From: Bacillota bacterium
GTDB lineage: Bacteria > Bacillota > Limnochordia > Darwinibacteriales > DTU012
Direction: 5' to 3'
Length of the DNA stretch: 64,000 nt
Assembly: GCA_012837335.1 (NCBI GenBank)
Contig: DURM01000019.1
Span: forward strand, 11,247-75,246
Below, in pieces: positions 17,262 to 64,000 of the stretch (its first letter is position 1; each line of letters opens with the position of its first letter). The notes under the pieces are model-generated. The model was given only the letters and a program-made list of their open reading frames with translations. It had not been told where the DNA came from and ran no database searches. A program made the position numbers and the translations under genes.

Positions 17262-18584
17262 CTAGAATTTAACAGCAATACCTGCTTTAGCAGTAGTACC
17301 GGTTTTGATAGATTCATCAGCAAATTTACCACCAACGTGGGTGATGCTCAAGCCGATACCGTTAGGTGCATCGTATGCAGCGCCAACTTCATAACCAATT
17401 GTTTCAAGGTCAGAAATTGTAACTTCGCTGTTAAGTTCAAGTCCTTTAACTGCAGGAATTAAGCCCAGTTTAGTGTCAGCACCTACAGTGTGGATCAAGC
17501 CGTTACCAGGTGTCCATTCACCATTGTATTTAGCTGTAACATCTAAACCGTCAATTACTGCGAATGCTCGATCGACTGCTAGATTTGTGCTTTGAGTTTT
17601 AATACCTTCGTTAACTGCTAATACTGTTTCAACATTAACGTTGAATCCTTCTACATTGGTTGCTGCGGATAATACAGCTTCATCAAACATCTGATCATAG
17701 TCAGCTGCTAACTGAATACCAGAGTGCTCAGCAGCGATACCTGCGTAGAAACCGCTGTCTCTGCGGCTGTCTTCATGAATCCAGTTCTGGCCGCGATCTT
17801 TCTTAGCTTTATCAGCGATATATGCCGGTTTCCATTCTTCAGAAATAGCTTTGTAACCACCGTGAACGCTTACGTTATCCATTACTTGATACTGAGCGCC
17901 AACAGCTAACATATGGTGAATAGGTCTTTCTTCGCCCTCTTCAACGTCTTCCAGATCTAATTGTGCTGCAACTGAACCACCAAGTACAAGGTCTTTCATC
18001 GGACGAACTGCACCGTCAACTACCATGTGAAGTGAATCCCAGTCATAGATAACTGCAGTACCAGCCGCCAGATTGTCCATGCTCATGTCAGCGCGGATAC
18101 CCTGGATCGATTTGTGTTCTTCAGTAGGAATACCATAGAAACCATTAACTGCAACTGGACCAATGTTCATGCCGCTGACACTGATACCATATTGATTTTT
18201 AACTGTGCTGAATGGGCCATAGTCAATGTCAAGGCTGCCGAAGCGAGTAGTTGCTTCAGGTCCGCCGTGCCAGAATGAACCATCAGTTTCGATATAAGCT
18301 TTCTTCAGAACAAGATTGTTTGCATCTAATTTCAGGTCTAAACCTTGGCTGTTTTTATCGCCAATACCAAATTCAACAACTGCTCTGGTTTTGTCATCTG
18401 CTGTGTCTAAACCGAAGTTCAGATTCAGCTCAGAAGTCGGTTTAGTTGTGATTGTGCCATCTAAATCTCTGTGCCACTCCAGATTTGTTTTCAAGGAACC
18501 ATCAAAGTTGATACCGGCTGCGAAAACAGATCCGGATACTGCTAATACAAGAGCTAATGTTAAAGCAATAATAGATTTTCTCAT
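17262..18584 (-). CDS. Putative outer-membrane beta-barrel protein / porin
   Basis: Start at 'MRKSIIALTLALVLAVSGSVFA' (Sec signal, RBS GGGGGA). The sequence is rich in alternating hydrophobic residues and Gly, Asp and Asn, and it ends in '...GIAVKF'. A terminal Phe is the usual C-terminal beta-signal of proteins inserted by the BAM outer-membrane assembly machinery. No S-layer-homology domain. Confidence 0.55.
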   Translation of the reverse strand: MRKSIIALTLALVLAVSGSVFAAGINFDGSLKTNLEWHRDLDGTITTKPTSELNLNFGLDTADDKTRAVVEFGIGDKNSQGLDLKLDANNLVLKKAYIETDGSFWHGGPEATTRFGSLDIDYGPFSTVKNQYGISVSGMNIGPVAVNGFYGIPTEEHKSIQGIRADMSMDNLAAGTAVIYDWDSLHMVVDGAVRPMKDLVLGGSVAAQLDLEDVEEGEERPIHHMLAVGAQYQVMDNVSVHGGYKAISEEWKPAYIADKAKKDRGQNWIHEDSRRDSGFYAGIAAEHSGIQLAADYDQMFDEAVLSAATNVEGFNVNVETVLAVNEGIKTQSTNLAVDRAFAVIDGLDVTAKYNGEWTPGNGLIHTVGADTKLGLIPAVKGLELNSEVTISDLETIGYEVGAAYDAPNGIGLSITHVGGKFADESIKTGTTAKAGIAVKF

Positions 18585-19020
18585 TTGGAATATTATCCCC
18601 CTTAAATCTGTTAAATCATTTTCATTTAAGCTTTGTCTTTTAGAAAAAACACTTGAATTTACGATGTCTAAGTCCGAATGAAAGAAGCATTGCCTGTGAG
18701 TATCCATGTTTCCTCATTGTCAATGTTCCTTCTGCTGCTTTGACTGGAACAGTGAGTTCAGCGACTAGACATGTCTTGCTGCATCATTCTCACTCCGTTT
18801 CTCGGTCTGCTTACCGGGGGACTGTCACCTCCTTTCTTGGTCTGCCGAAAAAAAGAGTCGAATGCGCAACACTAACTAACATAAGTTAGCCAAGCTGCAA
18901 TGAAAACTTGTTCATTACAACTACGCTATAAATATTCTCTTTCTTGGACATAAGTCCTGCTAGAAAGCTTAATGAACTTTTTCCCATTTCTGGAAAGCTC
19001 TGCAGTAAATATGCAGTCCG

Positions 19021-37546: not shown

Positions 37547-38389
37547 TTACATTCTTTTGAAGCCTTCCCCAAGTACCTCATGAACATCGCTGATAACTAC
37601 AAACGCATTGGGATCAATTTCCTTGACAAGCTCCCGCAGACTCTGGATCTCGGAGCGAGAAACAATCACATACAAAACTTCGCGTTCAGCTCCAGTATAC
37701 ATTCCTTTGCCAAACAGCGCAGTTGCTCCCCGTTCGAGCTTAGTGAGAATCATCTGGCCAACTTCTTCTGTATGATCGGTGATGATCAATGCTGCCTTAG
37801 CATAACTCTGTCCTTCCTGAACTACATCGATTGCTTTCGTGGTGACAAATACGGCTAACAGCGCGTATAAAGCCAGTTCCGGTCCAAAGACAAAAGCGGC
37901 CAGGGCAATCACAAATCCGTCCACAAATAAAAGTGCTCGCCCAACTGATGTAGGGAAAAATCTAGCAATCAACTGGGCTGCCATATCAGTTCCACCGGTG
38001 CTGCCTCCAAAGCGGAAAGTGATCCCCAGTCCCACACCGGTAATCACACCTCCATACACCGCCGATAAAAGAGGATCCGAGGTCAGGGGCACCGCCCACC
38101 GCTGAAACAAGTCAACTAAGAGCGAGAGTGTGACTGTGCCGACAAAGGTCTTAGCACCATAAACCGTTCCCAGAATCCTGATTCCGGCAATGAATAAAGG
38201 GATGTTTAAAGCCAGCATGGTCAGACCTACCGGGAAATTAAACAAATGATACGCTACAGTGGACAACCCGCTGACGCCGCCTGCAGCAATCCGGCTCGGG
38301 ATTAAAAACCAGCTCAGCCCAAACGCGGTAATGACCACACCAAAGAGTACGCCAAAATATTCCCGCAGTTTTTGAACGAATTTACCCAT
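37547..38389 (-). CDS. YitT-family membrane protein (DUF161 + DUF2179)
   Basis: Multi-TM N-terminus ('GGVSGLSTVAYHL') and a C-terminal DUF2179-like domain ('VLYVIVSRSEIQSLRELVKEIDPNAFVVISDV'). Start set at 'MGKFVQKL'. Confidence 0.7.
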   Translation of the reverse strand: MGKFVQKLREYFGVLFGVVITAFGLSWFLIPSRIAAGGVSGLSTVAYHLFNFPVGLTMLALNIPLFIAGIRILGTVYGAKTFVGTVTLSLLVDLFQRWAVPLTSDPLLSAVYGGVITGVGLGITFRFGGSTGGTDMAAQLIARFFPTSVGRALLFVDGFVIALAAFVFGPELALYALLAVFVTTKAIDVVQEGQSYAKAALIITDHTEEVGQMILTKLERGATALFGKGMYTGAEREVLYVIVSRSEIQSLRELVKEIDPNAFVVISDVHEVLGEGFKRM

Positions 38390-39128
38390 TCGCAGGCTTA
38401 CCTCCTGAAAATAACCTTTCAAACAGCACCCATAAAGCAAACTGAGGTAACGCTGCCGCCCGTCCTACACGCGATGGCTGCTGGAGGATGCGATACAGCC
38501 ATTCCAAACCAAACCTCCGCATCCACCGCGGCGCGCGGCGAACGGTTCCGGCTAGAATATCAAAGCTGCCCCCCACTCCCATTGCTACCGGTACCCCTAG
38601 TGAGGCAAGGTGAGCTGCCGCAAACTTTTCCTGTTTAGGCACTCCCAGCGCTACGAAGAGTATGTCCGGCCGGGAAGCTTTTATCTTTTCTAGCACTCCG
38701 TTCAGATCCTCCTGCTTAAAATACCCATGATGAGTGCCGACAATGTTGATACCATTATATTCCTCAGCTATTCTATTGGCAGCCTGCTCTGCTACCCCCG
38801 GTGCTGCTCCCAGCAGAAAGACCCGCCATCCGCGGGTGGAGCTTTCTGCCAGCATGGCCTGCATTAATTCAACGCCGGGTACCCGTTCCGGTAGCGGCTG
38901 TTTGAGAATTCTGCCTGCCCAGATCACGCCGATTCCGTCAGGAACAACCAGATCTGCCCTCTCGATAATCTCGTAAAGCAGTGGATCCCTGTTAGCAGCT
39001 ACGATCATCTCTGAGTTAGCAGTGACTACTAAATGCGGTTTAGGCTGCTTAATCATTGCGGCAATCTCGGCAACCGCCTCATCCATGGTAACTTGATCAA
39101 TTTTTACTCCCAAGATGCTGCTTTTCAT
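38382..39128 (-). CDS. tagA: WecB/TagA/CpsF-family glycosyltransferase (N-acetylmannosaminyltransferase-like)
   Basis: 248 aa ('VVTANSEMIV', 'VPDGIGVIWAGR', 'FLLGAAPGVAEQAA', 'LGVPKQEKF'), typical of TagA/WecG. Confidence 0.75.
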   Translation of the reverse strand: MKSSILGVKIDQVTMDEAVAEIAAMIKQPKPHLVVTANSEMIVAANRDPLLYEIIERADLVVPDGIGVIWAGRILKQPLPERVPGVELMQAMLAESSTRGWRVFLLGAAPGVAEQAANRIAEEYNGINIVGTHHGYFKQEDLNGVLEKIKASRPDILFVALGVPKQEKFAAAHLASLGVPVAMGVGGSFDILAGTVRRAPRWMRRFGLEWLYRILQQPSRVGRAAALPQFALWVLFERLFSGGKPANG

Positions 39129-39140
39129 ACTCGTCCCCCA

Positions 39141-40175
39141 TTATTTATTCCTTACAGCTGCAGCGAGTACATCGCGGTTTTTTTTGCTTAAAGTCCGCAT
39201 CAGCTCCACACGTTCAGCTAACCGCCGGAGATAATCATCACGGTCAGCGCGCACCTGAACTAGTTCGGCTGTCAGATCTTGATCCGGCTGTGGTGAAGAT
39301 ACTTTAATGCCTAATTGAGAGCTCACAGCTGCAACTTTCGGATCATAACAGAGTCCCAGAGGAGCGCTGCCCCCCAGTGCCGCAAAAATCAAGCCATGAA
39401 GCCGCATCGAAACACAGATCTCAGCAGCAGACATTAAACGAAATGCGCTGTTCCAGTCCTCAGCAATTATAAATTCAAGTTCAGGTATCTCCTGCTGCAG
39501 TTTCCGACCAATTTCCGCATCACCCGGACCTAAGGCAGCAAATCGGACATCGAGGTTGAGCCCGCTTTTCCAGCTGTTAATTAAATCCACCCACCGGTAA
39601 AAATCTGCCTGCAAAGTAGGATAAGGCCGCAGGTTAATAGTTAATCCTGGTGCAGTTGCGCGGTGGTCCAGCTGCAGGTTAAAAACCGGATCGGCTGCGG
39701 TAATAATTAGGCTCTCATCCAACCCCCAGTCCTGCAGAAGCTGCGCACTTCCCGCATCCCGAACAGAAATCCCGTGCACACGGCTGAACACTGATTTGAT
39801 CCAGCGCTGATACACTCGGCTGCTGACCGGGCCTATTCCCTGGCCATAGATGACAACTTTGCATCCAAAGCTTAGTGCGAGTTGAATAATGAGCAGATAA
39901 TAGGGAACTGTGCGCCAGCTGGTGCTGTCCTGCAGCAGCGAACCCCCACCGCTGATCAGCAGCCTGCTGCGGCGTACAGCTCTGACAATTGCGGGAAAAT
40001 TAGAGCGGGGCACCGCGCTGACCTTGTGCAGAGCCGCCGTTTCTTCCGGATTGCCGGAAAGCACTGTAATTTCGCTGGGATCAACACCCAATGAGACTAA
40101 ATCAGAGCACAAAGCCGCTAAAACAGCTTCATCACCGCTGTTGCCGCAGCCGTAATACCCGGAAATAAGAATCAT
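39141..40175 (-). CDS. csaB: Polysaccharide pyruvyl transferase CsaB
   Basis: Starts 'MILISGYYGCGNSGDEAVLAAL...'. Polysaccharide-pyruvyl-transferase fold of the CsaB type, which pyruvylates secondary cell-wall polymer so that SLH domains can bind it. Confidence 0.75.
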   Translation of the reverse strand: MILISGYYGCGNSGDEAVLAALCSDLVSLGVDPSEITVLSGNPEETAALHKVSAVPRSNFPAIVRAVRRSRLLISGGGSLLQDSTSWRTVPYYLLIIQLALSFGCKVVIYGQGIGPVSSRVYQRWIKSVFSRVHGISVRDAGSAQLLQDWGLDESLIITAADPVFNLQLDHRATAPGLTINLRPYPTLQADFYRWVDLINSWKSGLNLDVRFAALGPGDAEIGRKLQQEIPELEFIIAEDWNSAFRLMSAAEICVSMRLHGLIFAALGGSAPLGLCYDPKVAAVSSQLGIKVSSPQPDQDLTAELVQVRADRDDYLRRLAERVELMRTLSKKNRDVLAAAVRNK

Positions 40176-41824
40176 CCGCTGCTCACCTTTGTTCCTTTCT
40201 GATAGACCAGCCACAGCACCCATCCTACTGCATATCCGATAACAAGACCGTTAACTGTGCGGATAGCGCTGATAATAATCGGTGTGTGGATGTGGGTAAA
40301 TGTATTGACCAGGGATAACTGCCCAATTACTGCTAAACCCATTAAAATTGGATTGCGGTTCTTAGATGCCAGCAGCAGAACCAGCGCTGGGTGCCCGATA
40401 AATATCTCCTTAAAGCGGGGTCTAACGGTAAAAAACTGCTCCAAGGCTTCCCGCAGACCGATTTCAAACTGAGGTATTGGCAGTTTAAAGTTGGCAGTCC
40501 GCAGAATATATACTGCTCCAACCGCACCAACAACCGCCAGCATCAGCAGATATTTTACCGGCACCGATGTCTGATACAACTCCGATACCACCTGTCTAAA
40601 TTCCCGCCAAGATCGAAACGGCAGTCTATCCCTTAAATATCCGGTGACAAAAACTAAAAACACAGGGGCCAAATGCATCAGCTTCACTCCACGAAACTCG
40701 GTCAGCTTAACCAAGAAGGATGTGCCGCTGAGAATACCGATGATCAAAATCAAGCCAATAAAAGACCACGCTGTTGTTCGTAGATAAAGCTGGATTGTTG
40801 AGCCATCATCATGATTCCGCACCACTGCTAAGGTTGGAAAAACCACTGCTGCTGTCAGCGCCAGCAGCTGCTGACCTAGCACGGGAGCTCTGCTCAGAAT
40901 GAACCAGGAACCGATACCGCTGATCAAAAGCAGGACAACTATCCACTCTGGCTCTAATGTCATCCAGTGCTGTAGAAGCAGCAATGCCCCGGCTATAATG
41001 CCTAACCCGACGATCCACAAGTGCAGATGGGGTGTCTGCCAGGAACTGAATGGAACAGCTTTACCAATCTTGTATCCCTTAGCATGCAGATCCGCAGTCA
41101 AGCTTCTGATCAAGGTAACTGTTTGCTCCCAGCCATCTACTCCGGTTAACGGACGCAGATACAGAACACGGACATTGCGTTCCCGCACCGCTCGGACAAA
41201 TCGGGTCAGAATCCGATCAAACTCCAGATTTTCAAGCTCCTTAGCGCTGATACCATGAACGCGAATCAGCCGATCTGCATCTACAGCCTGTTCAATCCCC
41301 GACACACTGGTAAACTCCACCAAACCTACATTTCCATCATAGTCAGGTGGTAGGTTAGGTGCCGAACCGACATTAAAGATCACTATATGGGGCGTTAAGT
41401 CCGCTAATTTATCTGCTGTGGAAATATCCAAAACCTGGTTCTTCTCAAGCCGCGGGATTATCCTCATGCCTGCGGCAGAAACTGCAGCGATTTCATCAGG
41501 ATTAAATCCCATCGGCTCAGCCAATAGCTGAACCAGATCGCCACCTGATGCGCTTGCAGATGCAGCATGATCATATCCCAAGGCGATCTTTTCACCCAAA
41601 GTCCATTCTGTTAAAGCAATGCTTTCTATTCCCAGACTTCTTAATTCTGACAGCAGGGCAGCCGCCGGAAACTCAGGTGAAATAAACTGACTGAAGTCGC
41701 TGAAACCAGCGACTAATTCTACCGTATTATTCTCCCGTTCCAGATGAAGCCTTTGATAACCGACTGCGACAGCACCGGCCAAAGCTACTGCGATCAGCAA
41801 AATCAATGTACGCTTCATAATCAA
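40172..41824 (-). CDS. Large membrane protein, DUF5693-like (csaB-associated)
   Basis: 550 aa. N-terminal signal anchor, an extracytoplasmic domain of about 250 aa, then at least 8 TM helices. Family name is from memory of csaB-neighbour annotations and was not verified. Confidence 0.4.
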   Translation of the reverse strand: MIMKRTLILLIAVALAGAVAVGYQRLHLERENNTVELVAGFSDFSQFISPEFPAAALLSELRSLGIESIALTEWTLGEKIALGYDHAASASASGGDLVQLLAEPMGFNPDEIAAVSAAGMRIIPRLEKNQVLDISTADKLADLTPHIVIFNVGSAPNLPPDYDGNVGLVEFTSVSGIEQAVDADRLIRVHGISAKELENLEFDRILTRFVRAVRERNVRVLYLRPLTGVDGWEQTVTLIRSLTADLHAKGYKIGKAVPFSSWQTPHLHLWIVGLGIIAGALLLLQHWMTLEPEWIVVLLLISGIGSWFILSRAPVLGQQLLALTAAVVFPTLAVVRNHDDGSTIQLYLRTTAWSFIGLILIIGILSGTSFLVKLTEFRGVKLMHLAPVFLVFVTGYLRDRLPFRSWREFRQVVSELYQTSVPVKYLLMLAVVGAVGAVYILRTANFKLPIPQFEIGLREALEQFFTVRPRFKEIFIGHPALVLLLASKNRNPILMGLAVIGQLSLVNTFTHIHTPIIISAIRTVNGLVIGYAVGWVLWLVYQKGTKVSSG

Positions 41825-54573: not shown

Positions 54574-55224
54574 TCAGCCGCTTTTGGCTAAAAAAAGTCC
54601 GATAGGGATACCACGGCAGCGGGCTATTAAGTCAGCTAGCGAAAAAAATGTTGCTCCGGTAGTAAAGATATCGTCAATAATGAGAAAATGTTTACCTTTG
54701 ACTAGAGTGGGATCACTAAGTGAAAACGCATTCTGCAAGTTTTTAAAGCGCTGCGGTGGCGAGAGTAAACTTTGGGGTTCGGTTGGTTTATGGCGAAAGG
54801 CTTCATAAGTAGGGCGCCGCCAAACGCGGTTGATTCCTTCAGCCAAGGCTTCGGCCTGATTAAAGCCTCTCTTGTGAAGACGATCAATATGCAGTGGAAC
54901 GGGCAGAAAATAATCAATTACTGCCAGTCCAGCTTCTTCTTTGGCGGCCAATCCTAAAACCTCTCCTAAGGCCACCGCTATTTGATACTGGTTTTGATAT
55001 TTGACCTGATATAGAAGCTGCTGCAGATAATCATGATAATAGCAGAGGACATAACCCTCATAGCGACTTAAGTTTAATTTTTGAAAATCAGGATTTATTC
55101 TCTGTACACAGTCACGGCAGATCGGCAGTCCATCTGGCAGAACCCTTGTCCGGCAGAGCGGACAAAGCGGTGGTGTTGGGTAGAGCAATTCAGATAATTC
55201 CCGAAGCCATACTCTCAGACTCAT
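54574..55224 (-). CDS. comFC: ComF-family protein (ComFC-like phosphoribosyltransferase)
   Basis: N-terminal Cys-rich segment and a PRTase motif 'FLIIDDIFTTGAT'. Confidence 0.75.
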   Translation of the reverse strand: MSLRVWLRELSELLYPTPPLCPLCRTRVLPDGLPICRDCVQRINPDFQKLNLSRYEGYVLCYYHDYLQQLLYQVKYQNQYQIAVALGEVLGLAAKEEAGLAVIDYFLPVPLHIDRLHKRGFNQAEALAEGINRVWRRPTYEAFRHKPTEPQSLLSPPQRFKNLQNAFSLSDPTLVKGKHFLIIDDIFTTGATFFSLADLIARCRGIPIGLFLAKSG

Positions 55225-56969
55225 CGGGACTCCACCCCTTTTAATAAACCCTGCTCTGCCGCCTGCCTGTTTAAGTAGGTAATTCGTTTTTGAGCGGTTT
55301 TCATTGCATCAGTAATTCTGCCGCCGATAAACCAGACTTCTCCATCAGGATGCTCTGCCTTCCTGCCGGCTCTGCCTGCCATCTGGATTAAAGAATTGGA
55401 GTCGAAAAGAACATGATCGCTGTAAAGCACCATGACCTGGACATCTGCCAAAGTGATCCCCCGCTCCATAATTGAAGTGGCTGCCATCACCTGGTATTCC
55501 CCAGATGCAAAGTCTGCTATTTTTTGATCCCGCTGGGGATCAGCCGCCCAACTGCCGCAGACCCTGCGGTTCAGGACAGCTGCTAGTACTTTGGTCAGCT
55601 GCTTAACTGCCTGAACCGTCGGAGCAAAAATCAGCCATGGCGACTGATTGCTCTCAATAATGGAGACAACCTGCTCTGGCAGACCCTTATCAGCTAATTG
55701 GTTTAATTCAGGTAATTTTATTTTTAAGAATCGAGGTTCCGGCAGCGGCCATCCATGATAGCGAGCCGGAATTGTAATCACCGCGCTTGTGCGTAAGCTT
55801 CGGGGAGTTGCTGTCATTTCCACCAATTTACCATCAGCAGTCAGTGAACGTTTAATGGCAAAACGCAGCATCTCGCTCCCGTGATAGGGAAAGGCATCCA
55901 CTTCATCTAAAACGACCAGATCAAAACAGCGGTAAAACCGCAGCGCTTGATGGGTTGTAGCAATTGTCAGCTGACCCTGCTGCTGCCAGGGCTGTCCGCC
56001 ATAATGAACTGCGATTTCAGTATCTGGGAACGCTTTCCTTAATCGCTCTGCAAGCTCCCGCACTACATCACGGCGGGGGATTGCAAACATGACCTTACTG
56101 CCGCGGCTGAGCGCGGTTTGAATGGCTGCAAAAGTAACCTCTGTTTTTCCTGCACCGCAGGCTGCCCACACCAAGACTTTTTTCTTGTCGCTGTGGATAA
56201 AGTCCACAAGTTCACTGCTGGCCCGCCGCTGAGCAGGAGTAAGCTCAAAGTCTAAATGCAGTTTAGGTAATTGCTGAAAATCATCTGCGGGCACTAAAGG
56301 ACCAGCACGCTCCGGTTTATCCAGAACCCATAATCTTGTGCAGCCGCGAACTGGTCCCAAAGAATCACAGGTGGTGCAGATCGGACAATCCGGCCGCCCG
56401 CAGAAGGGACAGGGCCGTACTTCTGTAACTGAGGAATTGCAGCGCATACAGCGGGCTTCTCCCCAGGAGGTTTTAGTCACGCCCGGAAAGCACTCAATTA
56501 CTCCCATGCGCAAACCCCAATCTAAAACCCTCCGGATGTCTGCAGGCCACCAACCGCTGGCTCTAAGAGCCTGTTCCAAAAGATTATCCGGAAGCAGGCG
56601 ACCGTCGAGAAGCAGCTTGAGTTCGCTGAGCAGCTCCAATCTCTGCTCCTCATCCAACCGCCACTGCTCGTAGATCGATTCAGGAACTTCAACCGGATAA
56701 CCCGGATAAGCCAAACCTAATCTGCGCCGCACCAACCAAACTACTGCACTCGGCCAGGCAAACTTCTTCCAAACCCAGTTTAAACGCCCGCGCATCACTT
56801 CAATCTGACTGCGCATGAAAAAGACCTCATCAGCCGCAAGAGGTGGGGTAAGAGCATAAACTCTTCCGCGCCCATCATGATCTGGTTTGAACCAGCGCGG
56901 TTCCTCACAAATATGAAATTTTAACTCGGTTTCAGGAGTCAGTCGCACTAATAGTTGCAATTTTGCCAT
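55221..56969 (-). CDS. comFA: ComFA-like DEAD/DEAH-box helicase
   Basis: Zinc-finger cluster ('CMRCNSS...CPFCGRPDCPIC'), Walker A 'AACGAGKTEV', 'LDEVDAF', helicase C motifs. Confidence 0.75.
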   Translation of the reverse strand: MAKLQLLVRLTPETELKFHICEEPRWFKPDHDGRGRVYALTPPLAADEVFFMRSQIEVMRGRLNWVWKKFAWPSAVVWLVRRRLGLAYPGYPVEVPESIYEQWRLDEEQRLELLSELKLLLDGRLLPDNLLEQALRASGWWPADIRRVLDWGLRMGVIECFPGVTKTSWGEARCMRCNSSVTEVRPCPFCGRPDCPICTTCDSLGPVRGCTRLWVLDKPERAGPLVPADDFQQLPKLHLDFELTPAQRRASSELVDFIHSDKKKVLVWAACGAGKTEVTFAAIQTALSRGSKVMFAIPRRDVVRELAERLRKAFPDTEIAVHYGGQPWQQQGQLTIATTHQALRFYRCFDLVVLDEVDAFPYHGSEMLRFAIKRSLTADGKLVEMTATPRSLRTSAVITIPARYHGWPLPEPRFLKIKLPELNQLADKGLPEQVVSIIESNQSPWLIFAPTVQAVKQLTKVLAAVLNRRVCGSWAADPQRDQKIADFASGEYQVMAATSIMERGITLADVQVMVLYSDHVLFDSNSLIQMAGRAGRKAEHPDGEVWFIGGRITDAMKTAQKRITYLNRQAAEQGLLKGVESR

Positions 56970-57409: not shown

Positions 57410-57772
57410 TTATGTTCTAGTACTCAGGAGGAGGTCCCCTAATTCTGTGCAAGAATGGGAAACGGTTCCTATCGGCAGTTCTAAGACCCAGCGAGCACCA
57501 GCCACATAGGGACCACACCTGCCGGGGACAAGCTCATGGATCTTCATGACGCGGTTGGATTGATCCAAATACAGAACTTCCACTGCTATCCGCATCCCAA
57601 ACCCATGCACCATACTGCAGGGAATCAGCAGCAGACCTTCTCCCCTGCAAAGCTCAGCAGCACCCAGCAGTCCCTTCAGGCGGAGCAGAAAAGTATCAGC
57701 TATTCGGATCTCTGTTCCTAAACATGTGCCTTTAGTGGCATTGAGAATCTGAATCTTTTTCATTATAATCAC
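57410..57772 (-). CDS. DUF192-family protein (COG1430)
   Basis: 120 aa ('LLLIPCSMVHGFGMRIAVEVLYLD'). Confidence 0.5.
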   Translation of the reverse strand: MIIMKKIQILNATKGTCLGTEIRIADTFLLRLKGLLGAAELCRGEGLLLIPCSMVHGFGMRIAVEVLYLDQSNRVMKIHELVPGRCGPYVAGARWVLELPIGTVSHSCTELGDLLLSTRT

Positions 57773-57781
57773 CCGAAAAAA

Positions 57782-58693
57782 TTAGAAAACTGCAAGAAAC
57801 TGCAGAACAGCCGGTCCCAACAGCACAATAAATAGCGAGGGAAATACCAGTGTTACTAAAGGCAGCAGCATCTTGATCGGTGCTTTCATCGCCTCTTCTT
57901 CAGCTTTCTGCCGCCGCTGTCTTCGGATTTCCTGCGCTTGAATTCTCAGCACTTTACTGATACTCACGCCCAGCTGATCTGCCTGGACAACCGCAGCGGC
58001 AAAATTTTGGAGATACAGGACACCGGTGCGTTCACCTAAATCTCGGAGAGCGTCCCGGCGTGCTTTTCCAATCCGCATTTCAGACAGCATCCGCCGCAGC
58101 TCATCAGCTAACGGACCTTCCTTTTTTTCGACCACCTTGGCAACGGCTGCATCAAATCCCAGACCAGCCTCAACGCTTACTGTAAGAAGATCCAGCAGAT
58201 CTGGCACAGCCAGAGAAACAGCTATCTGTCTTGCCTTAATCTTCTGGCGGAGATACAAGTCTGGAATAACCCAAGCCGAAGCGGTAAACACAAACACGTG
58301 CATAAAAGTAGGAGAGAGCATAACTACAGCCGCCGCTGTTAGGCCGGTAATGGTCAGCTTAAGTACCATGAACTCTTGAGCCTTCAATCCGCCCGGATTA
58401 CCCGCTAAAACCAGCTGCCGGTTGAGCTTTTCCCATCTCCGATCCTGTTTTTTTACTGAAAACAAACTAGCAAGCCTAGTTAAAGTTCTTCTTATCAGCC
58501 CTACTTCGCCCACGGTTTGGTCGACTGCTTTCTGCTCTTCACCTACTATCCCGTACAGCTTTATACGCTCGGCTTCCGCCTCGGCTAGCTGCCGCTGCCG
58601 ATAAGCGGAATAAACAGCTAAACTGATCGAGAGAAAAACTAACCCTGAAATCCATAAAGCCACGTGAATCCTCCTACACCCGAATATTGACAA
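57782..58693 (-). CDS. tadC: Tad/Flp pilus assembly inner-membrane protein TadC (T2SS-F family)
   Basis: 303 aa. N-terminal TM, GspF-like domain, C-terminal TM pair. Confidence 0.7.
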   Translation of the reverse strand: MSIFGCRRIHVALWISGLVFLSISLAVYSAYRQRQLAEAEAERIKLYGIVGEEQKAVDQTVGEVGLIRRTLTRLASLFSVKKQDRRWEKLNRQLVLAGNPGGLKAQEFMVLKLTITGLTAAAVVMLSPTFMHVFVFTASAWVIPDLYLRQKIKARQIAVSLAVPDLLDLLTVSVEAGLGFDAAVAKVVEKKEGPLADELRRMLSEMRIGKARRDALRDLGERTGVLYLQNFAAAVVQADQLGVSISKVLRIQAQEIRRQRRQKAEEEAMKAPIKMLLPLVTLVFPSLFIVLLGPAVLQFLAVF

Positions 58694-59666
58694 TCCTGCG
58701 GATTAAAAAAGCAGCGGCTGCCTGTCCTCCTAAACCAACAATCAGCATTGCCCTGCCCAGCGGTTCCGAGAATAAAGGGCGGATATAATCAGGATTGAGC
58801 AGGTAAATAAAAATGGTAAGTGCAAAGGGCAGAGCGGAAATCACCAGACCGGATATGCGTCCTTGAGCCGTTAGTGTGCTGATTTCTCCTTTGATGCGGA
58901 TCCTTTCCCTAATGGTACCAGCGATCGAATCTAAGATCTCCGAAAGATTACCCCCTACCTGCCTCTGAATCAAGACTGCGGTCACTACCAATTCTAAGTC
59001 ATCACTTACTACACGCTTAACCAAATTTTCCAGCGCAAATTCTGTGTCTGCTCCCAAACTCATTTCCTTGTTGACCAGAGCAAACTCCTCCGCCAGAGGC
59101 GGTTCAGACTCCCGGGCGATCAGCTCAACAGCTTGAAAAAAACTGCAGCCCGCTTTCAAAGAATTGGCAATTGCAGCTAATACCTCTGGCAGCTGCTGCT
59201 CTACCTGTTTGCTCCGCTGACTCTGTCTCCATCTTACATAAACCGAAGGCGCTAATGCCGCCAATACTGCCAGGAGCAGACACTGCTCCAAACTCACGCT
59301 AAATCCCAGCAAAACTAAGGGCGAGAAACCAAGCAGGGCATTCAAAATCAGGAATTCTCCGGCTGACAGCGAAATTCCAGCCCTGACCAGTTCTAAGGCC
59401 AGCTGCCGTGACGGCTTGATATTCAGCTTTTGATTAATCTGTCCCAACAGCCGCTGAACTCTAGTTAACAGCTCGTCTTCATCTGATTCATCTTCTGCGT
59501 ATCCATTTAAGCCGTGCTGAGGCATCAACTCATAAATGCGGCGGTCGAGCAGATGTTTTTGCTGCAATCTTCCAGCAGCAGCAAAGCAGATAAGAACTAC
59601 AGCACAGAACACTAAAGCTGCGCAAAATAAAGGCATCAATATGCTCACCCCGATCATGCTGCTCAT
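58674..59666 (-). CDS. tadB: Tad/Flp pilus assembly inner-membrane protein TadB (T2SS-F family)
   Basis: 330 aa with the same T2SS-F topology, adjacent to cpaF. Confidence 0.7.
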   Translation of the reverse strand: MSSMIGVSILMPLFCAALVFCAVVLICFAAAGRLQQKHLLDRRIYELMPQHGLNGYAEDESDEDELLTRVQRLLGQINQKLNIKPSRQLALELVRAGISLSAGEFLILNALLGFSPLVLLGFSVSLEQCLLLAVLAALAPSVYVRWRQSQRSKQVEQQLPEVLAAIANSLKAGCSFFQAVELIARESEPPLAEEFALVNKEMSLGADTEFALENLVKRVVSDDLELVVTAVLIQRQVGGNLSEILDSIAGTIRERIRIKGEISTLTAQGRISGLVISALPFALTIFIYLLNPDYIRPLFSEPLGRAMLIVGLGGQAAAAFLIRRIVNIRV

Positions 59667-60985
59667 TAAATGAATAAGTTAATCGGCAGCTGAATTCCAT
59701 TATCCGCAATTTTCTCGGCACACCGCGGTCTGATTCCAGTCGGCCGCAGCACTCCCCGCTCAAAAACAAAGATATCCTGCATAGTGATTACCTCACCTTC
59801 AATTCCCTGGACCTCAGTAATCTGAGTAATCTTCCGAGACCCATCTTTTAACCGAGCCTGCTGGATAATCAGATCAATTGCCGATGCAATCTGCTCCCGG
59901 ATTGCCCGCACCGGCAGATCCACACCAGCCATCAGAACCATGGTTTCCAGCCGCGCGAGCATATCCCGAGGACTGTTGGCATGGCCGGTGGTCATGGAAC
60001 CATCATGCCCGGTATTCATTGCCTGAAGCATATCCAGAGCTTCACCGCCCCGAACTTCACCAATGACAATCCGATCCGGGCGCATTCGCAGGGAGTTGCG
60101 CACCAAATCTCGGATTGCCACTGCCCCCCTCCCCTCAATATTAGGAGGACGGCTCTCCAGCGAAACAACATGAGTCTGCCTGAGCTGCAGCTCAGCTGCG
60201 TCTTCGATGGTAATAATCCGTTCTTCCGCCGGAATGAACGAAGACAGCACATTTAGCAGTGTTGTCTTTCCACTTCCGGTTCCCCCGGAAACCACGATAT
60301 TTAATCTAGCCTTGACGCAGGCCTCGATGAACTCAGCCATCTCTAGCGTGAGGGTGCCGAAGTTAATTAGGTCTTCTATTGTTAGGGGATCGGCTGCAAA
60401 CTTCCGGATTGTAATCGTTGGACCGTTGAGCGCTAACGGCGGAATAATCGCGTTGACACGGGAACCATCAGGCAGCCGTGCATCCACCATGGGACTGCTT
60501 TCATCAATTCGTCTTCCCAGCGGTGCAACGATTTTATCGATAATATGCAGCACATGCTCATGGTCACGAAAAGTAATGTCTGTCAGCTCTAATCGTCCGC
60601 TCCGCTCAACAAAAACTTGCTTAGGTCCATTTACCATGACCTCCGAAATATCCGGATTGAGAATCAAGGAATTAATCGGCCCAAAGCCGGTAACCTCGTC
60701 AATAATATCCTGGAGCAGCTGTAGGTTCTCAGCGCGGGACAAGTTCGCCTGCTCTTCATGGATAACCCGCTGAACAACCTGCTCAACCTTGGTTTTTAAT
60801 TCTTGGTTTTTATCATTCTGGTCGGCGCTTTTCAGCAGTTTACTGTCAATTTCACTTACCAGCTGCTCATGAATGCGGCCTTTGAGGACAATTAAAGGAT
60901 CGCGTGGGTTGGTACTCCCGGAACTTGCCGGCTGATTCTGGCCAGCTTGATCTTTATGCCGTTCTAGTCGTGCCAATAATGACAT
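59666..60985 (-). CDS. cpaF: Tad/Flp pilus assembly ATPase CpaF/TadA
   Basis: Walker A '[11 protein letters not shown]', '[11 protein letters not shown]', '[38 protein letters not shown]', diagnostic of CpaF. Confidence 0.9.
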
Positions 60986-60989
60986 ATGA

Positions 60990-62180
60990 TCATCCTTTTC
61001 TTGTGAACAGCGTGCCGGCAAACGGCAGCATTTTTTTTGGTTCATAAATACCTAATATATCCTTACTCATCTGTTCTAAAGCGCGTCCCAGTTTTGACCG
61101 GGGATTTAAGTCCACAATCGGAATGCCCTGCACACAGGCTTGATAAGCAAGTCTCGGATCATAAGGCAGCGCCCGCCAAACCGGATAATTGAGATGGCTG
61201 CTGAACTGTTCCAGCCGAATTCCCTCAGCACCAACCTTGTTAGCAGTTACTTTAACTTTCGCTGCCAAATTCAGTTTCGCTAAAACATCTAAACAGCGGC
61301 GGATGTTTTTTAGATTAGCTAAGTCAGGTGTTCCCGCAAGCAGGATATGGTCTGCTGTTTCAAGAGCTTGCAGAGTCGTTTCTTGGAAAAACTGGGGTGT
61401 GTCGATCACAATAAAATCAGCAAGGGATTTTAACTCTTTTAAAATCTGAGCGATATGTTCAGCGGTAATTAACTCTCCTTCTTCAGGAACCTCCGGGGCT
61501 GCGAGAATTCTAAGACCTGGTCCAGCTTCAAGCAGATAATCTACAGCCGCAGGGCAGCCATCAGCGAACCAGTCAGAAATAGAGTGTTGGACGGCAAGAT
61601 CCAGCATCAGCGGCACATCGCCAAACTGCAGATCAAAATCGACAAGGATCACTTCGTGATTCTGCTTGGCTAAGGCAGCCGCAAGATTGACGGCAATCGT
61701 AGTCTTCCCTACTCCCCCTTTGGCGCTGAAAACTGCGATTGTCTCCGCACTGCGCGTTGGTTTTTCCACTATCTCATGGCGACTGCGCCGGGCGCATTCC
61801 AGCTGCCAAACGCGGTTGATAGTATTAATCAGCTCATCGCCGCTGAAGGGCTTAGTTAGATAATCTCTAGCGCCTGCTGCCATCGCTCGGCGCAGATACT
61901 CCTGCTCTTCCTGCACACTGATTACAATGGTCAAGCATTCAGGAGCTGCTTGATAAATCTGCTCGGCTGCGCTGATACCATCCAATCCGGGCATGTTGAT
62001 GTCCATTAAGATGCAGTCTGGCTTGAGATCTCGCGCCACTTCCACCGCTTCGCTGCCATCAGCTGCTTCACCGATAACCGCGATATTATCTGCAAAAGCC
62101 AGCAGCTTTCTAATATTGCTCCTAGTTTCAGCTGTATCATCAACAATCACTACTCTGATCTTATCTGGTTCCATCACCAC
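60990..62180 (-). CDS. cpaE: CpaE-like pilus-assembly ATPase with N-terminal response-regulator receiver domain
   Basis: REC domain with acidic pocket and phospho-acceptor Asp ('VVIVDDT...ILMDINMPGLDG'), then a ParA/MinD deviant Walker A 'SAKGGVGKTT'. Confidence 0.8.
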   Translation of the reverse strand: MVMEPDKIRVVIVDDTAETRSNIRKLLAFADNIAVIGEAADGSEAVEVARDLKPDCILMDINMPGLDGISAAEQIYQAAPECLTIVISVQEEQEYLRRAMAAGARDYLTKPFSGDELINTINRVWQLECARRSRHEIVEKPTRSAETIAVFSAKGGVGKTTIAVNLAAALAKQNHEVILVDFDLQFGDVPLMLDLAVQHSISDWFADGCPAAVDYLLEAGPGLRILAAPEVPEEGELITAEHIAQILKELKSLADFIVIDTPQFFQETTLQALETADHILLAGTPDLANLKNIRRCLDVLAKLNLAAKVKVTANKVGAEGIRLEQFSSHLNYPVWRALPYDPRLAYQACVQGIPIVDLNPRSKLGRALEQMSKDILGIYEPKKMLPFAGTLFTRKG

Positions 62181-64000
62181 TCACTCCCTCGCTTACAATC
62201 CATGGGGTGACGAACACCGTCAGTTCAGTCTGCCTCTCCTGAAACTCTGAGCTGCGAAACAAAGCTCCGATTATCGGCAGATCACCCAGAATCGGAATCT
62301 TTTTGATCTGGTTGTTCTCTTCATGCTGAATCAAACCGCCAATCACTGCAGTGGAACCGTGCTTTAAATTCACCACCGTTTCTGTCCGCCGTGTTCGTAA
62401 AGGAGGCATTGATGTTTGAAGCCGCGCGCTGGTCTGCCAATCAAGACTGCTGACTTCGGGCTTAATCTGAATCCGAATCTGTTCATCAGCAATAAATGGC
62501 AGAATCTCAAGTTTTACCCCATAGACAATCCATTCAATCGTCTGCTGGTCACCCACTTGTACTAGAACCGGAATCTCGCCTCCTGCTAAAAACTCAGCCG
62601 GCTCTCCTGACAGGGTAAGCAGACTGGGCGCAGCCAACAGTTTAGCCTTCCCCTCCTCTTCTAGGGCTGATAGTCTAGCTCCTAATAAATGTGAACGGTT
62701 CATCTGCCAGCTGCCGATATGCGCAACTTCTTCGAAGGAAATTACATTGGCAAACAGCTGTCCTTCAACTAAACTGCCCCATTCCACACCAAACTGTTCT
62801 CCTGCGCTGCGATCAAGCTCAACAACATGTACCTGCAGCAGCACCTGCTCCGGCTCAAGAATAGTCAGGAGATCAATAACATCACCATAAAGTTCAGCCA
62901 CCTGAAGAACCCGGCTGTGTTCCCGCGAGTTTTGAACCGTTCCTTCCAGGACAAGTTTTTCACCAACAGCCGTTACCTTTACATCCGGAAGATCCAAATG
63001 CCGGACTAATTCCTCAGCCGAACTGATCTGACCCGGCTGGGGATACTGCAGAAAACTAATTACCGGCTGATAGAATACTTCTGCCAGGCGCTCCGCCCGC
63101 TCTTTAGCCTTTTGATCAGGAACAAGTCCTTCCAGCACAATGGTGCCATGATAATACCGCACACTAATACCCGGCTCCCGAAGGGCGGAAGCAATGTCAG
63201 CAACCAAATCTGCTTCAAACACATGCTCATTCCCACTGTCCAGAATAATCGGCGGGTGCTGCACCCGCACCAAATCGATCACCTGATCACTGAATGCCTG
63301 CCCGATCGCCAGAGCTCTGGTTTTTGCAAACTCATCTTCAGCTGTACCTTCTAAGAAAAGAGTGCTCCCAATCCAATGGGGGTGAATATCAGTGCCGGCA
63401 AGTAGAGTGTTCAGCAGCTCCCGATCCGGCTCATCCACCTCTCCAGCGGGAGTGGGAGTAGGATTCTCTTCGGCCATTTCCACAGTAATCAAGTCAATCA
63501 CCGGCAGATCGGATACTGCTGCCAGCTTCACTGCCCGCTCTTTTTCCCACAAGTTTACAGCTCTGCCTTCGAGAACTAGATGTCCATAGACGATCTCCAA
63601 AGTAATTTCGGGGCTGCCGATCAACCTATTCATTTGGCTTAAGAGCGTCTCTTCGTCTGATTCCAGATCATCGACATCCAGTGGTTCAACCTCTGGAGAC
63701 CGCTCCTGCACCCTGATTAAGTCTACCACCGGCAGACCATAAGCTTCTGCGATAGCACAGGCTCGCCGCCGGTGGTACTCATCAGCAGCACTTCCTTCCA
63801 AGAAAATTGTCTCTCCCACAGCATAAACATGAACGTTATCATCGAGTAATGCTTGAATTTGCTCTGCAAAATCCGCAGGTCCCGGCTCAGTCACCTCCGC
63901 TGCCGTGGATTCCGGTACAGGGTCGGCGTTTCCTACCTTAAGCAGATCAAGAACCTGCAGACCAAAAGCGTCAGCTGTGCGGTAAGCCAGTGCCCGTACG
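62161..64000 (-). CDS. cpaC: Secretin (CpaC/RcpA-like) with at least 5 tandem N-terminal pilus-formation repeats; 5' end beyond window
   Basis: C-terminal secretin domain ('KIPILGDLPIIGALFRSSEF...TVFVTPWIV'). Five repeats of roughly 75-90 aa of the form '...LEG(T/S)...A...VIDL(I/L)xV(Q/E)'. The reading frame stays open upstream of the ORF-track GTG at 63894 to the window edge (translated 'VRALAYRTADAFGLQVLDLLKV...'), so the gene is 5'-truncated. Confidence 0.8.
   Translation of the reverse strand, partial: VRALAYRTADAFGLQVLDLLKVGNADPVPESTAAEVTEPGPADFAEQIQALLDDNVHVYAVGETIFLEGSAADEYHRRRACAIAEAYGLPVVDLIRVQERSPEVEPLDVDDLESDEETLLSQMNRLIGSPEITLEIVYGHLVLEGRAVNLWEKERAVKLAAVSDLPVIDLITVEMAEENPTPTPAGEVDEPDRELLNTLLAGTDIHPHWIGSTLFLEGTAEDEFAKTRALAIGQAFSDQVIDLVRVQHPPIILDSGNEHVFEADLVADIASALREPGISVRYYHGTIVLEGLVPDQKAKERAERLAEVFYQPVISFLQYPQPGQISSAEELVRHLDLPDVKVTAVGEKLVLEGTVQNSREHSRVLQVAELYGDVIDLLTILEPEQVLLQVHVVELDRSAGEQFGVEWGSLVEGQLFANVISFEEVAHIGSWQMNRSHLLGARLSALEEEGKAKLLAAPSLLTLSGEPAEFLAGGEIPVLVQVGDQQTIEWIVYGVKLEILPFIADEQIRIQIKPEVSSLDWQTSARLQTSMPPLRTRRTETVVNLKHGSTAVIGGLIQHEENNQIKKIPILGDLPIIGALFRSSEFQERQTELTVFVTPWIVSEGVSGDGTR

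Follow-up and report, generated by a model that had tools for sequence, protein, structure and literature searches.

Seven BON domains in the Tad pilus secretin of an uncultured, Limnochordia-like diderm member of the Bacillota

A secretin with a long array ahead of its barrel

The stretch of DNA considered here, hereafter the window, covers 64,000 nucleotides of contig DURM01000019.1 (positions 11,247 to 75,246 of the forward strand) in the Bacillota bacterium assembly GCA_012837335.1, and ends in most of a gene for a secretin, the outer-membrane pore of a chromosomally encoded Tad/Flp (type IVc) pilus machine, in an uncultured Limnochordia-like diderm of the Bacillota. Secretins serve pili, secretion systems and filamentous phages as gates in the outer membrane. 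In the present one, seven BON domains are inserted between the N-terminal domain and the secretin barrel. We hold, with a probability of roughly 60%, that they form seven rings which, with the ring of the N-domain, extend the conduit of the pilus as a segmented stack.

The gene is read on the minus strand. Its frame runs from 63999 to 62164 without a stop codon, which comes at 62161-62163, and is open to the edge of the window. A GTG at 63894 was listed as its start; since the frame continues upstream, this cannot be where the gene begins, and its 5′ end lies beyond the window. The missing 5′ part (549 nt, 183 codons) was supplied by a 7,499-bp contig of an ENA metagenome assembly (L001), which is 99.9% identical to the window over 60220-64000 and reaches 3.7 kb further. 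The full-length protein (P0001, 795 aa) was recovered by searching a large protein collection and matches the window fragment save for one His/Pro difference; the window encodes its residues 184-795 and the stop codon, a fragment of 612 aa.

Pfam and a repeat hidden Markov model (HMM) give the layout of P0001 as a signal peptide, a PF13629 domain (residues 19-85), seven BON-like repeats termed B1 to B7 (97-146, 156-205, 231-280, 306-356, 379-429, 452-501 and 514-563) and the Secretin domain (628-785). Repeats 3-7 lie entirely within the window, as does the C-terminal half of repeat 2; the features there are as follows, the repeat scores being those of an independent HMM trained only on repeats of the distant relatives P0019, P0024, P0033 and P0038:

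62161..63999, minus strand: 3′ 77% of the Tad secretin gene (cpaC/rcpA type), from the open frame, Pfam Secretin and BON matches, and P0001 with L001
62164..62859, minus strand: secretin core (PF00263 match at 62194-62667, 152 bits against a cut-off of 27.5; RcpA 8odn; Foldseek matches to GspD, InvG and PilQ)
62860..63009, minus strand: BON repeat 7 (B7), next to the secretin, at the 'N3' position of canonical CpaC (55.6 bits)
63046..63195, minus strand: BON repeat 6 (B6), the best Pfam BON stretch (62.4 bits)
63262..63414, minus strand: BON repeat 5 (B5), whose closest paralogue is B3 at 46% identity (51.4 bits)
63481..63633, minus strand: BON repeat 4 (B4), fold predicted (48.2 bits)
63709..63858, minus strand: BON repeat 3 (B3), predicted alpha-beta-beta-alpha-beta (64.0 bits)
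63934..63999, minus strand: BON repeat 2 (B2), C-terminal half, cut by the window edge (11 bits)

On the 612-aa fragment, Pfam finds Secretin at residues 445-602 (152.5 bits, E 1e-44) and BON, PF04972, in four stretches (79.8 bits, E 2e-22). On P0001 the scores are 151.8 bits for Secretin (cut-off 27.5), 97.2 for BON (cut-off 27) and 48.3 for PF13629 (cut-off 23), the latter domain, at residues 19-85, lying outside the window, on L001. The closest sequence relative of the whole protein in the PDB is the Tad secretin RcpA (8odn, E 3.2e-37). No curated NCBIfam family reaches its cut-off for this secretin, the GspD, PilQ, MshL and SctC models all scoring far below theirs; judged from its sequence, the protein is nearer to RcpA/CpaC than to GspD, PilQ or SctC. 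The C-terminus of an AlphaFold2 model matches GspD, InvG and PilQ in the PDB (Foldseek, E 1e-14 to 1e-9), and the N-domain matches the N-terminal domain of VirB9/TrwF with a root-mean-square deviation of 1.7 A. A conserved lipobox was considered and discarded: P0001 has a cysteine at residue 17, but its orthologues P0003 and P0007 have none.

The original prediction, made from the letters of the window alone, had proposed a CpaC/RcpA-type secretin with at least five, probably at least six, N-terminal repeats. Both parts stand: RcpA 8odn is the best solved relative and the gene lies in a full tad operon, while the array comprises five complete repeats and half of a sixth in the window, and seven in P0001. 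The further unit announced in the open frame at 63895..64000 is likewise real, as the frame continues there and encodes the C-terminal half of B2.

The repeated unit is a BON domain

The independent HMM gives each of the five complete repeats of the window 48-64 bits and the partial sixth 11 bits, when the highest score over 200 shuffles of the array region is 4.0 bits. The Pfam BON model separates only some of the repeats as stretches, and custom HMMs separate all seven. Their period is 59-75 aa, with a core of about 50-55 aa, shorter than the roughly 80 aa first put forward. They share 27-46% identity among themselves, B3 and B5 being the closest pair, and Tandem Repeats Finder returned no row on the DNA; the array is therefore ancient and not low-complexity. 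The same empty search rules out a recent duplication of the repeats.

It would be scarcely conceivable, in these conditions, that the repeats are an artefact of biased composition, mis-assembly or mis-framing. The linkers between them are indeed compositionally biased, being acidic; beyond this, the suspicion had nothing in its favour but the caveat of the original prediction itself. It is refuted by the Pfam BON match above cut-off, by the scores of the independent HMM against those of the shuffles (48-64 bits per repeat against 4 at most), by the presence of the same sequence on an independent contig of another assembly, by confident predicted folds and by the existence of dozens of orthologues.

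What, then, is the repeated unit? A profile built from 32 repeats and compared with the sequences of the PDB retrieves OsmY (E 1.8e-6), DolP and BonA, and matches no secretin N-domain there. A glycine, G28, is invariant in the 32 aligned repeats; Yeats and Bateman are said to have described, in 2003, a conserved glycine as the hallmark of the BON family. In the AlphaFold2 monomer model of P0001 (from an alignment of 15 sequences; mean predicted local distance difference test, pLDDT, 69.7), DSSP assigns the order helix-strand-strand-helix-strand (alpha-beta-beta-alpha-beta) to each of the seven repeats, at a pLDDT of about 75-84, and Foldseek matches the array to YscD, CdsD and PrgH (4alz, 4qo6, 5tcp), DolP, OsmY and BonA. 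Whole-model Foldseek TM-scores (0.1-0.16) are meaningless owing to the flexible linkers, and only the identities of local matches were used. Weak Pfam matches to the Yop-YscD_ppl families were also seen. Taken together, the Pfam and PDB profile matches, the invariant glycine, the predicted fold and the Foldseek matches identify the unit as a BON domain (PF04972), not as PF13629, which occurs once only in P0001 and was discarded as the repeated unit on that account. Of the 'pilus-formation (BON-like)' units initially described, the BON part of the name is therefore to be kept and the PF13629 part dropped, the single PF13629 domain lying outside the window.

It was also anticipated that the repeats would match a model of secretin N-domains, and here the outcome is divided: Pfam BON is above its cut-off, but Secretin_N (PF03958) is absent from all eight proteins scanned (Pfam, E ≤ 0.01). 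The likeness of the repeats to Secretin_N rings (GspD N1-N3, the PilQ N-rings) is limited to fold and position, and does not extend to membership of that family.

Each position of the array has its own identity

In each of the five seven-repeat orthologues tested (P0002, P0003, P0009, P0013 and P0016), repeat i of P0001 finds its best match in repeat i, from 65% protein identity down to 43-45%, with alignment scores of 75-216 for orthologous repeats as against 34-138 for non-orthologous ones. Each position of the array has therefore an identity of its own, and the modules are under position-specific constraint. B6 and B7 are the best conserved. This one-to-one orthology is lost in relatives with 8, 11 and 12 repeats, which implies independent expansions.

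The linkers follow a pattern too. Those between B1 and B2 (9-15 aa) and between B6 and B7 (11-12 aa, conserved) are fixed in length, while the four remaining ones range between 15 and 67 aa across orthologues. These four are acidic, proline-rich and disordered (linker composition 26% Asp/Glu, 13% Pro, 5% Lys/Arg), and pLDDT falls below 50 in linkers at residues 207-224, 282-296, 359-373 and 432-441. The seven BON modules are structurally autonomous, arranged as two tight pairs and three single domains parted by disordered acidic spacers; B1-B2 and B6-B7 probably act as rigid units.

We may ask whether such an array is anything more than a flexible spacer with little function attached to position, its number drifting through duplication and loss, only the N-domain and B7 being essential and the protein working like any CpaC. 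The number of repeats among relatives does range from 2 to 13, linkers may be as short as 15 aa or as long as 67, repeats cease to pair one to one outside the seven-repeat clade, and operons that are orthologous and otherwise identical in their genes differ in having 7 or 11 repeats. Against this, seven repeats have been kept in position in the five orthologues tested, down to 43-45% identity, and the count is seven in 15 of 15 close relatives; each repeat is well conserved, as the scores just given illustrate, and truncated, degenerate or frame-shifted repeats were not seen. A mere spacer seems to us distinctly unlikely.

Relatives and number of repeats

A scan of a genome collection for secretins, which returned at least 600 stretches, mostly of canonical CpaC, serves as a baseline and not as a full taxonomic census. 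Among the matches listed, 81 loci (80 genome representatives and L001) were compared: 64 have one BON-like domain, nine have none and five have two. Seven or more repeats are found in three only, L001 (the window's own gene, 7), L002 (7) and L003 (11), and the multi-BON secretins among the matches listed are those of L002, L003 and L005. The array is thus longer than is typical of CpaC/RcpA, as had been proposed, the RcpA of Pseudomonas aeruginosa having no such domain. The closest species representative among these matches is a metagenome-assembled genome (MAG) of the Bacillota, at 65% identity, and the Firmicutes MAG UBA3943 (L004) has an ordinary one-BON CpaC. Canonical CpaC proteins among the matches listed align only to residues ~507-785 of P0001, that is, to B7 and the secretin; B7 is therefore the ancestral module, and B1-B6 are additions to it.

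A census was made by an exhaustive HMMER scan of 1.84 billion representatives at 50% identity, with B3-B7 as the single query, its reach being bounded by the sensitivity of phmmer. It yielded 117 proteins at E ≤ 1e-3, of which 59 reach E ≤ 1e-10 and 15 reach E ≤ 1e-30. The clusters that bear a secretin domain are distributed as follows:

2 repeats: 17 clusters
3 repeats: 9 clusters
4 repeats: 36 clusters
5 repeats: 8 clusters
6 repeats: 3 clusters
7 repeats: 7 clusters
8 repeats: 4 clusters
9 repeats: 2 clusters
11 repeats: 2 clusters
13 repeats: 1 cluster

Seven is the number in each of the 15 close homologues (43-65% identity), against 6, 8, 9, 11 or 12 in more distant relatives and four in a large group of them. 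The longest array, 13 repeats in a protein of 1,437 aa (P0154), comes from a Logan assembly with no taxonomic label. Every relative that bears a name is a MAG protein under the label Limnochordia, Firmicutes or Bacillota (the taxonomy being that of the MAG label), and when the 11-repeat P0019 was used to look for a host in culture (Limnochorda or Geochorda, for example), all matches were again metagenome or MAG proteins. The protein of the window is a mid-range member of a small and diverse family, rare overall but the rule among the relatives recovered from Bacillota/Limnochordia MAGs and metagenomes. It had been allowed from the start that the array would lose its interest if the repeats were of low complexity or if homologues routinely carried as many. 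The first is not the case; the second is, within the lineage, where homologues routinely carry the array, with seven repeats in close relatives and 4-13 in more distant ones.

Several members of the family deserve a word of their own. P0121 (1,274 aa) and P0123 (1,294 aa) have 11 and nine BON repeats, each fused to a secretin. P0121 and P0229 correspond to MBI2914855.1 and MBI2914366.1 at NCBI, with 11 and 7 repeats, and the closeness of these accession numbers suggests the presence of two multi-BON Tad secretins in a single MAG of the Bacillota. P0226 (1,072 aa), P0210 and P0227 have 5-9 repeats of the same BON type with no detectable secretin domain or N-domain, and may be fragments or a separate family of multi-BON periplasmic proteins. 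Of the 36 secretins with four repeats, about 30 have lengths of 800-1,180 aa (P0170, 1,171 aa; P0205, 1,179 aa; P0175, 1,090 aa, for example) and must therefore hold large additional regions. In the Armatimonadota, P0066, P0067 and P0071 (Fervidibacter / bacterium HR17) combine LysM, PF13629, four BON domains and Secretin, one source naming them PilQ; these Fervidibacter-type secretins represent a different solution, in which an explicit peptidoglycan-binding domain has been added.

What the array may do

In the mature secretin, the VirB9-like beta-sandwich N-domain is followed by the seven BON-type domains and then by the barrel. Upon oligomerisation, as a 13-15-mer, each BON position would form a ring, as the fold shared with the YscD/PrgH motifs of type III secretion systems (T3SS) suggests, and the seven BON rings with the ring of the N-domain would prolong the conduit far into the periplasm, toward RcpC, in the way of the six N-rings of Thermus PilQ. 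The variable, acidic, proline-rich and disordered linkers at four junctions would make this stack segmented and extensible instead of rigid. By analogy with Thermus PilQ, the array probably results in a much longer periplasmic channel, as was initially surmised.

Three families of proteins help to place this proposal. RcpA (Pseudomonas aeruginosa, PDB 8ODN) and CpaC (Caulobacter crescentus) belong to the same clade of secretins, with a VirB9-like PF13629 N-domain (PMC10499894), and have Flp, the A24 peptidase, RcpC/CpaB, CpaE, CpaF, TadB and TadC in common with P0001 as operon partners. In P. aeruginosa RcpA nothing but a 20-aa linker separates the single N-domain from the secretin, and other homologues insert one N3 domain (PMC10499894), whereas P0001 inserts seven BON domains, some 470 extra residues.

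The PilQ of Thermus thermophilus, whose six N-rings (N0-N5) form a channel measuring about 35 x 15 nm through a periplasm described as 'extraordinarily wide' (PMC5745081; PMC4463427), is likewise a secretin of a diderm envelope of the Terrabacteria type, and its N-terminal part is an unusually long succession of small alpha/beta domains. It differs in that it belongs to a type IVa pilus and DNA-uptake system and not to a Tad machine, in that its N-domains are beta-alpha-beta-beta-alpha and not Pfam BON, no sequence match having been found, and in the number of its modules, six against eight in P0001 (the N-domain and seven BON) and up to 13 BON in relatives of the latter; the long acidic disordered linkers of P0001 are foreign to it.

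YscD, PrgH and CdsD of the T3SS, finally, have tandem BON-like domains of alpha-beta-beta-alpha-beta fold that build periplasmic rings in a trans-envelope machine, but they are anchored in the inner membrane and have three such domains, while the array of P0001 has seven, fused to an outer-membrane secretin.

Several observations weigh against a stack of rings. Ring formation by these BON domains is read from their fold, and the predicted TM-score of the monomer model is only 0.36, so that the relative arrangement of its domains is uninformative. In sequence, the repeats resemble BON domains of the OsmY/DolP type, for which the function demonstrated is phospholipid binding (PMC7806268), and not the Secretin_N domains of GspD and PilQ. 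Long disordered linkers are atypical of tightly stacked N1-N3 rings. RcpC, moreover, stays constant in length (275-291 aa) from loci with 7 repeats to one with 11, and a simple model in which the array fills a gap would therefore need envelopes of differing widths.

One may also consider the BON domains as binding modules and not as builders of rings; they would recognize the inner leaflet of the outer membrane (through anionic phospholipid, as in DolP), peptidoglycan or a pyruvylated secondary cell-wall polymer, and so anchor or position the pore in an envelope that would lack the usual pilotin and lipoprotein helpers, perhaps standing in for the pilotin. OsmY, DolP and BonA share with the repeats Pfam BON membership and the conserved glycine, and are the only solved sequence relatives of the repeat profile. 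The second BON domain of DolP binds phospholipid, the only one for which such binding is demonstrated (PMC7806268). A typical Tad secretin is a 13-14-mer pore assembled with a pilotin (TadD) or a lipoprotein (CpaD). No gene for a TadD/CpaD-like pilotin or a lipoprotein with tetratricopeptide repeats was seen in L001 or in the related loci L082 and L083, a further difference of the P0001 locus from those of RcpA and CpaC. The related Fervidibacter secretin P0066 has an added LysM domain, P0019 has a weak OmpA-like match over its first BON repeat (27.5 bits against a cut-off of 27.2, with no separate stretch), a CsaB/TagA cluster for a cell-wall polymer lies within the window, and flexible acidic linkers would suit tethered binders. 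Yet DolP and OsmY manage with one or two BON domains, and seven orthologously distinct positions fit structural roles better than redundant binders. The acidity of the protein (net charge -4 to 0 for each BON domain, about -64 for the mature protein) would be unfavourable for contact with an anionic lipid or a pyruvylated polymer. The position of B7 is also common with canonical CpaC, and RcpA homologues carry their N3 beside the base of the secretin (PMC10499894). We therefore see binding as an unlikely role for the array, and keep the segmented stack of rings as the preferred account.

The tad operon and its surroundings

L001 and the window together yield a complete tad operon, with genes for Flp (a pilin of 60 aa), an A24 prepilin peptidase, a PF13400 Tad-family protein, RcpC/CpaB (291 aa, on L001), the secretin, CpaE, CpaF, TadB, TadC and a DUF192 protein. 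Downstream of the secretin, the window contains:

60990..62180, minus strand: CpaE/TadZ-like ATPase with an N-terminal receiver domain (Response_reg and ParA/AAA_31)
59666..61045, minus strand: CpaF/TadA secretion ATPase (T2SSE, 228 bits)
58674..59666, minus strand: TadB-like platform protein (T2SSF)
57782..58693, minus strand: TadC-like platform protein (T2SSF)
57410..57772, minus strand: DUF192 (COG1430) gene, last in the operon, its position kept at 14886-15278 in L082 and 15691-16146 in L083

The start of cpaE overlaps the secretin stop by 20 nt; on L001 the protein is called from a start two codons downstream (394 aa, against 396 aa for the open reading frame, ORF, of the window, whose exact sequence gave no match when looked up). 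Its N-terminal part is a full response-regulator receiver domain (100.9 bits). The loci of P0007 (7 repeats) and P0019 (11 repeats), L082 and L083, have the same gene order with, in addition, a TadE gene, and genes for a DegS-type kinase and a LuxR-type regulator upstream of flp. In loci with 7 and with 11 repeats alike, the DUF192 gene is a conserved and unexplained accessory of the Tad system. Genes for a ComFA-like helicase and a ComFC-like phosphoribosyltransferase (54574-56969, minus strand) lie directly downstream of the tad operon, as in L082 and L083, which hints at a link of the pilus locus with DNA uptake. The rest of the window is ordinary chromosome, with genes for SecA, UvrABC, GroEL, GuaA, histidine biosynthesis and FlgN/FlgK/FlgL; the GC content is 47.4%.

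How does the array relate to the envelope of its host? Under the electron microscope Limnochordia prove to be diderm, and some have an S-layer (PMC11456536); the array had been tentatively connected with a thick-periplasm envelope anchored by S-layer-homology (SLH) domains. No SLH domain or OmpM was found by Pfam in the approximately 40 window ORFs scanned. The window does contain, at 38382-41824 on the minus strand, genes in a row for a TagA/WecG glycosyltransferase, a CsaB-type polysaccharide pyruvyl transferase (39141-40223) and a DUF5693 protein, which make a cluster for pyruvylation of a secondary cell-wall polymer. CsaB makes the pyruvylated polymer that is the usual ligand of SLH domains, and the CsaB/TagA cluster is compatible, if only circumstantially, with a tether of the Thermus/Deinococcus type. 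A simple link between array and tether is nonetheless weakened because the secretins of Negativicutes and Halanaerobiales, which have OmpM/SLH tethers, 'lacked distinctive domain architecture' (Denise et al.; PMC6668835), and because UBA3943 has a one-BON CpaC. The connection with an SLH-anchored envelope is thus weak, and in part contradicted.

An ORF of 481 aa (17262-18707, minus strand), with a signal peptide, a beta-rich sequence and a C-terminal phenylalanine (...AGIAVKF), has no Pfam match, and its single NCBIfam match is at chance level (E 0.003, far below cut-off). From these features of sequence it looks like an uncharacterised outer-membrane beta-barrel or porin, a candidate that would fit a diderm host.

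Concluding remarks

Much of what has been assembled here was known already: the BON domain family, the Tad machine, the design principle embodied in Thermus PilQ and the 'BON + secretin' architecture itself. Table 1 of Bryant et al. (2020) lists a 'BON + secretin' cluster of 537 proteins, about 10 of them from Firmicutes, whose major architecture is named in that table as 'BON + secretin' only, arrays of 7-13 units not being singled out there (PMC7806268). The proteins of that cluster, as well as OsmY, DolP and BonA, have one to three BON domains, as compared with seven in P0001. Full-text literature searches (BON with secretin; Tad, Limnochordia and diderm Firmicutes) found no paper describing multi-BON Tad secretins, related proteins being automatically named 'BON domain-containing protein' at NCBI. 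What is new is the combination, the copy number and the segmented pattern of linkers, of which no description was found in the literature.

The finding reveals no new kind of machine. To our knowledge, the way secretins cross the periplasm is known only for a few Proteobacteria, Thermus and Deinococcus. We may go one step further, with a proposal that we ourselves regard as doubtful: Limnochordia-like diderm Bacillota might build the longest secretin conduits known, with 7-13 BON-type rings in which rigid pairs and acidic linkers alternate, making an extensible, spring-like tube fitted to a wide or variable periplasm, perhaps without a pilotin. If true, no other secretin would extend as far into the periplasm as a Tad secretin bearing 7-13 BON-type modules, and a segmented secretin made of rigid pairs and disordered linkers would be a structurally undescribed type. 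The natural series of repeats (2, 4, 7, 8, 11, 13) would allow one to relate the number of rings to the length of the channel. As the Limnochordia are central to the debate on how the two-membrane envelope evolved in the Firmicutes, the array would provide a concrete molecular ruler for the geometry of an envelope type that is almost unstudied.

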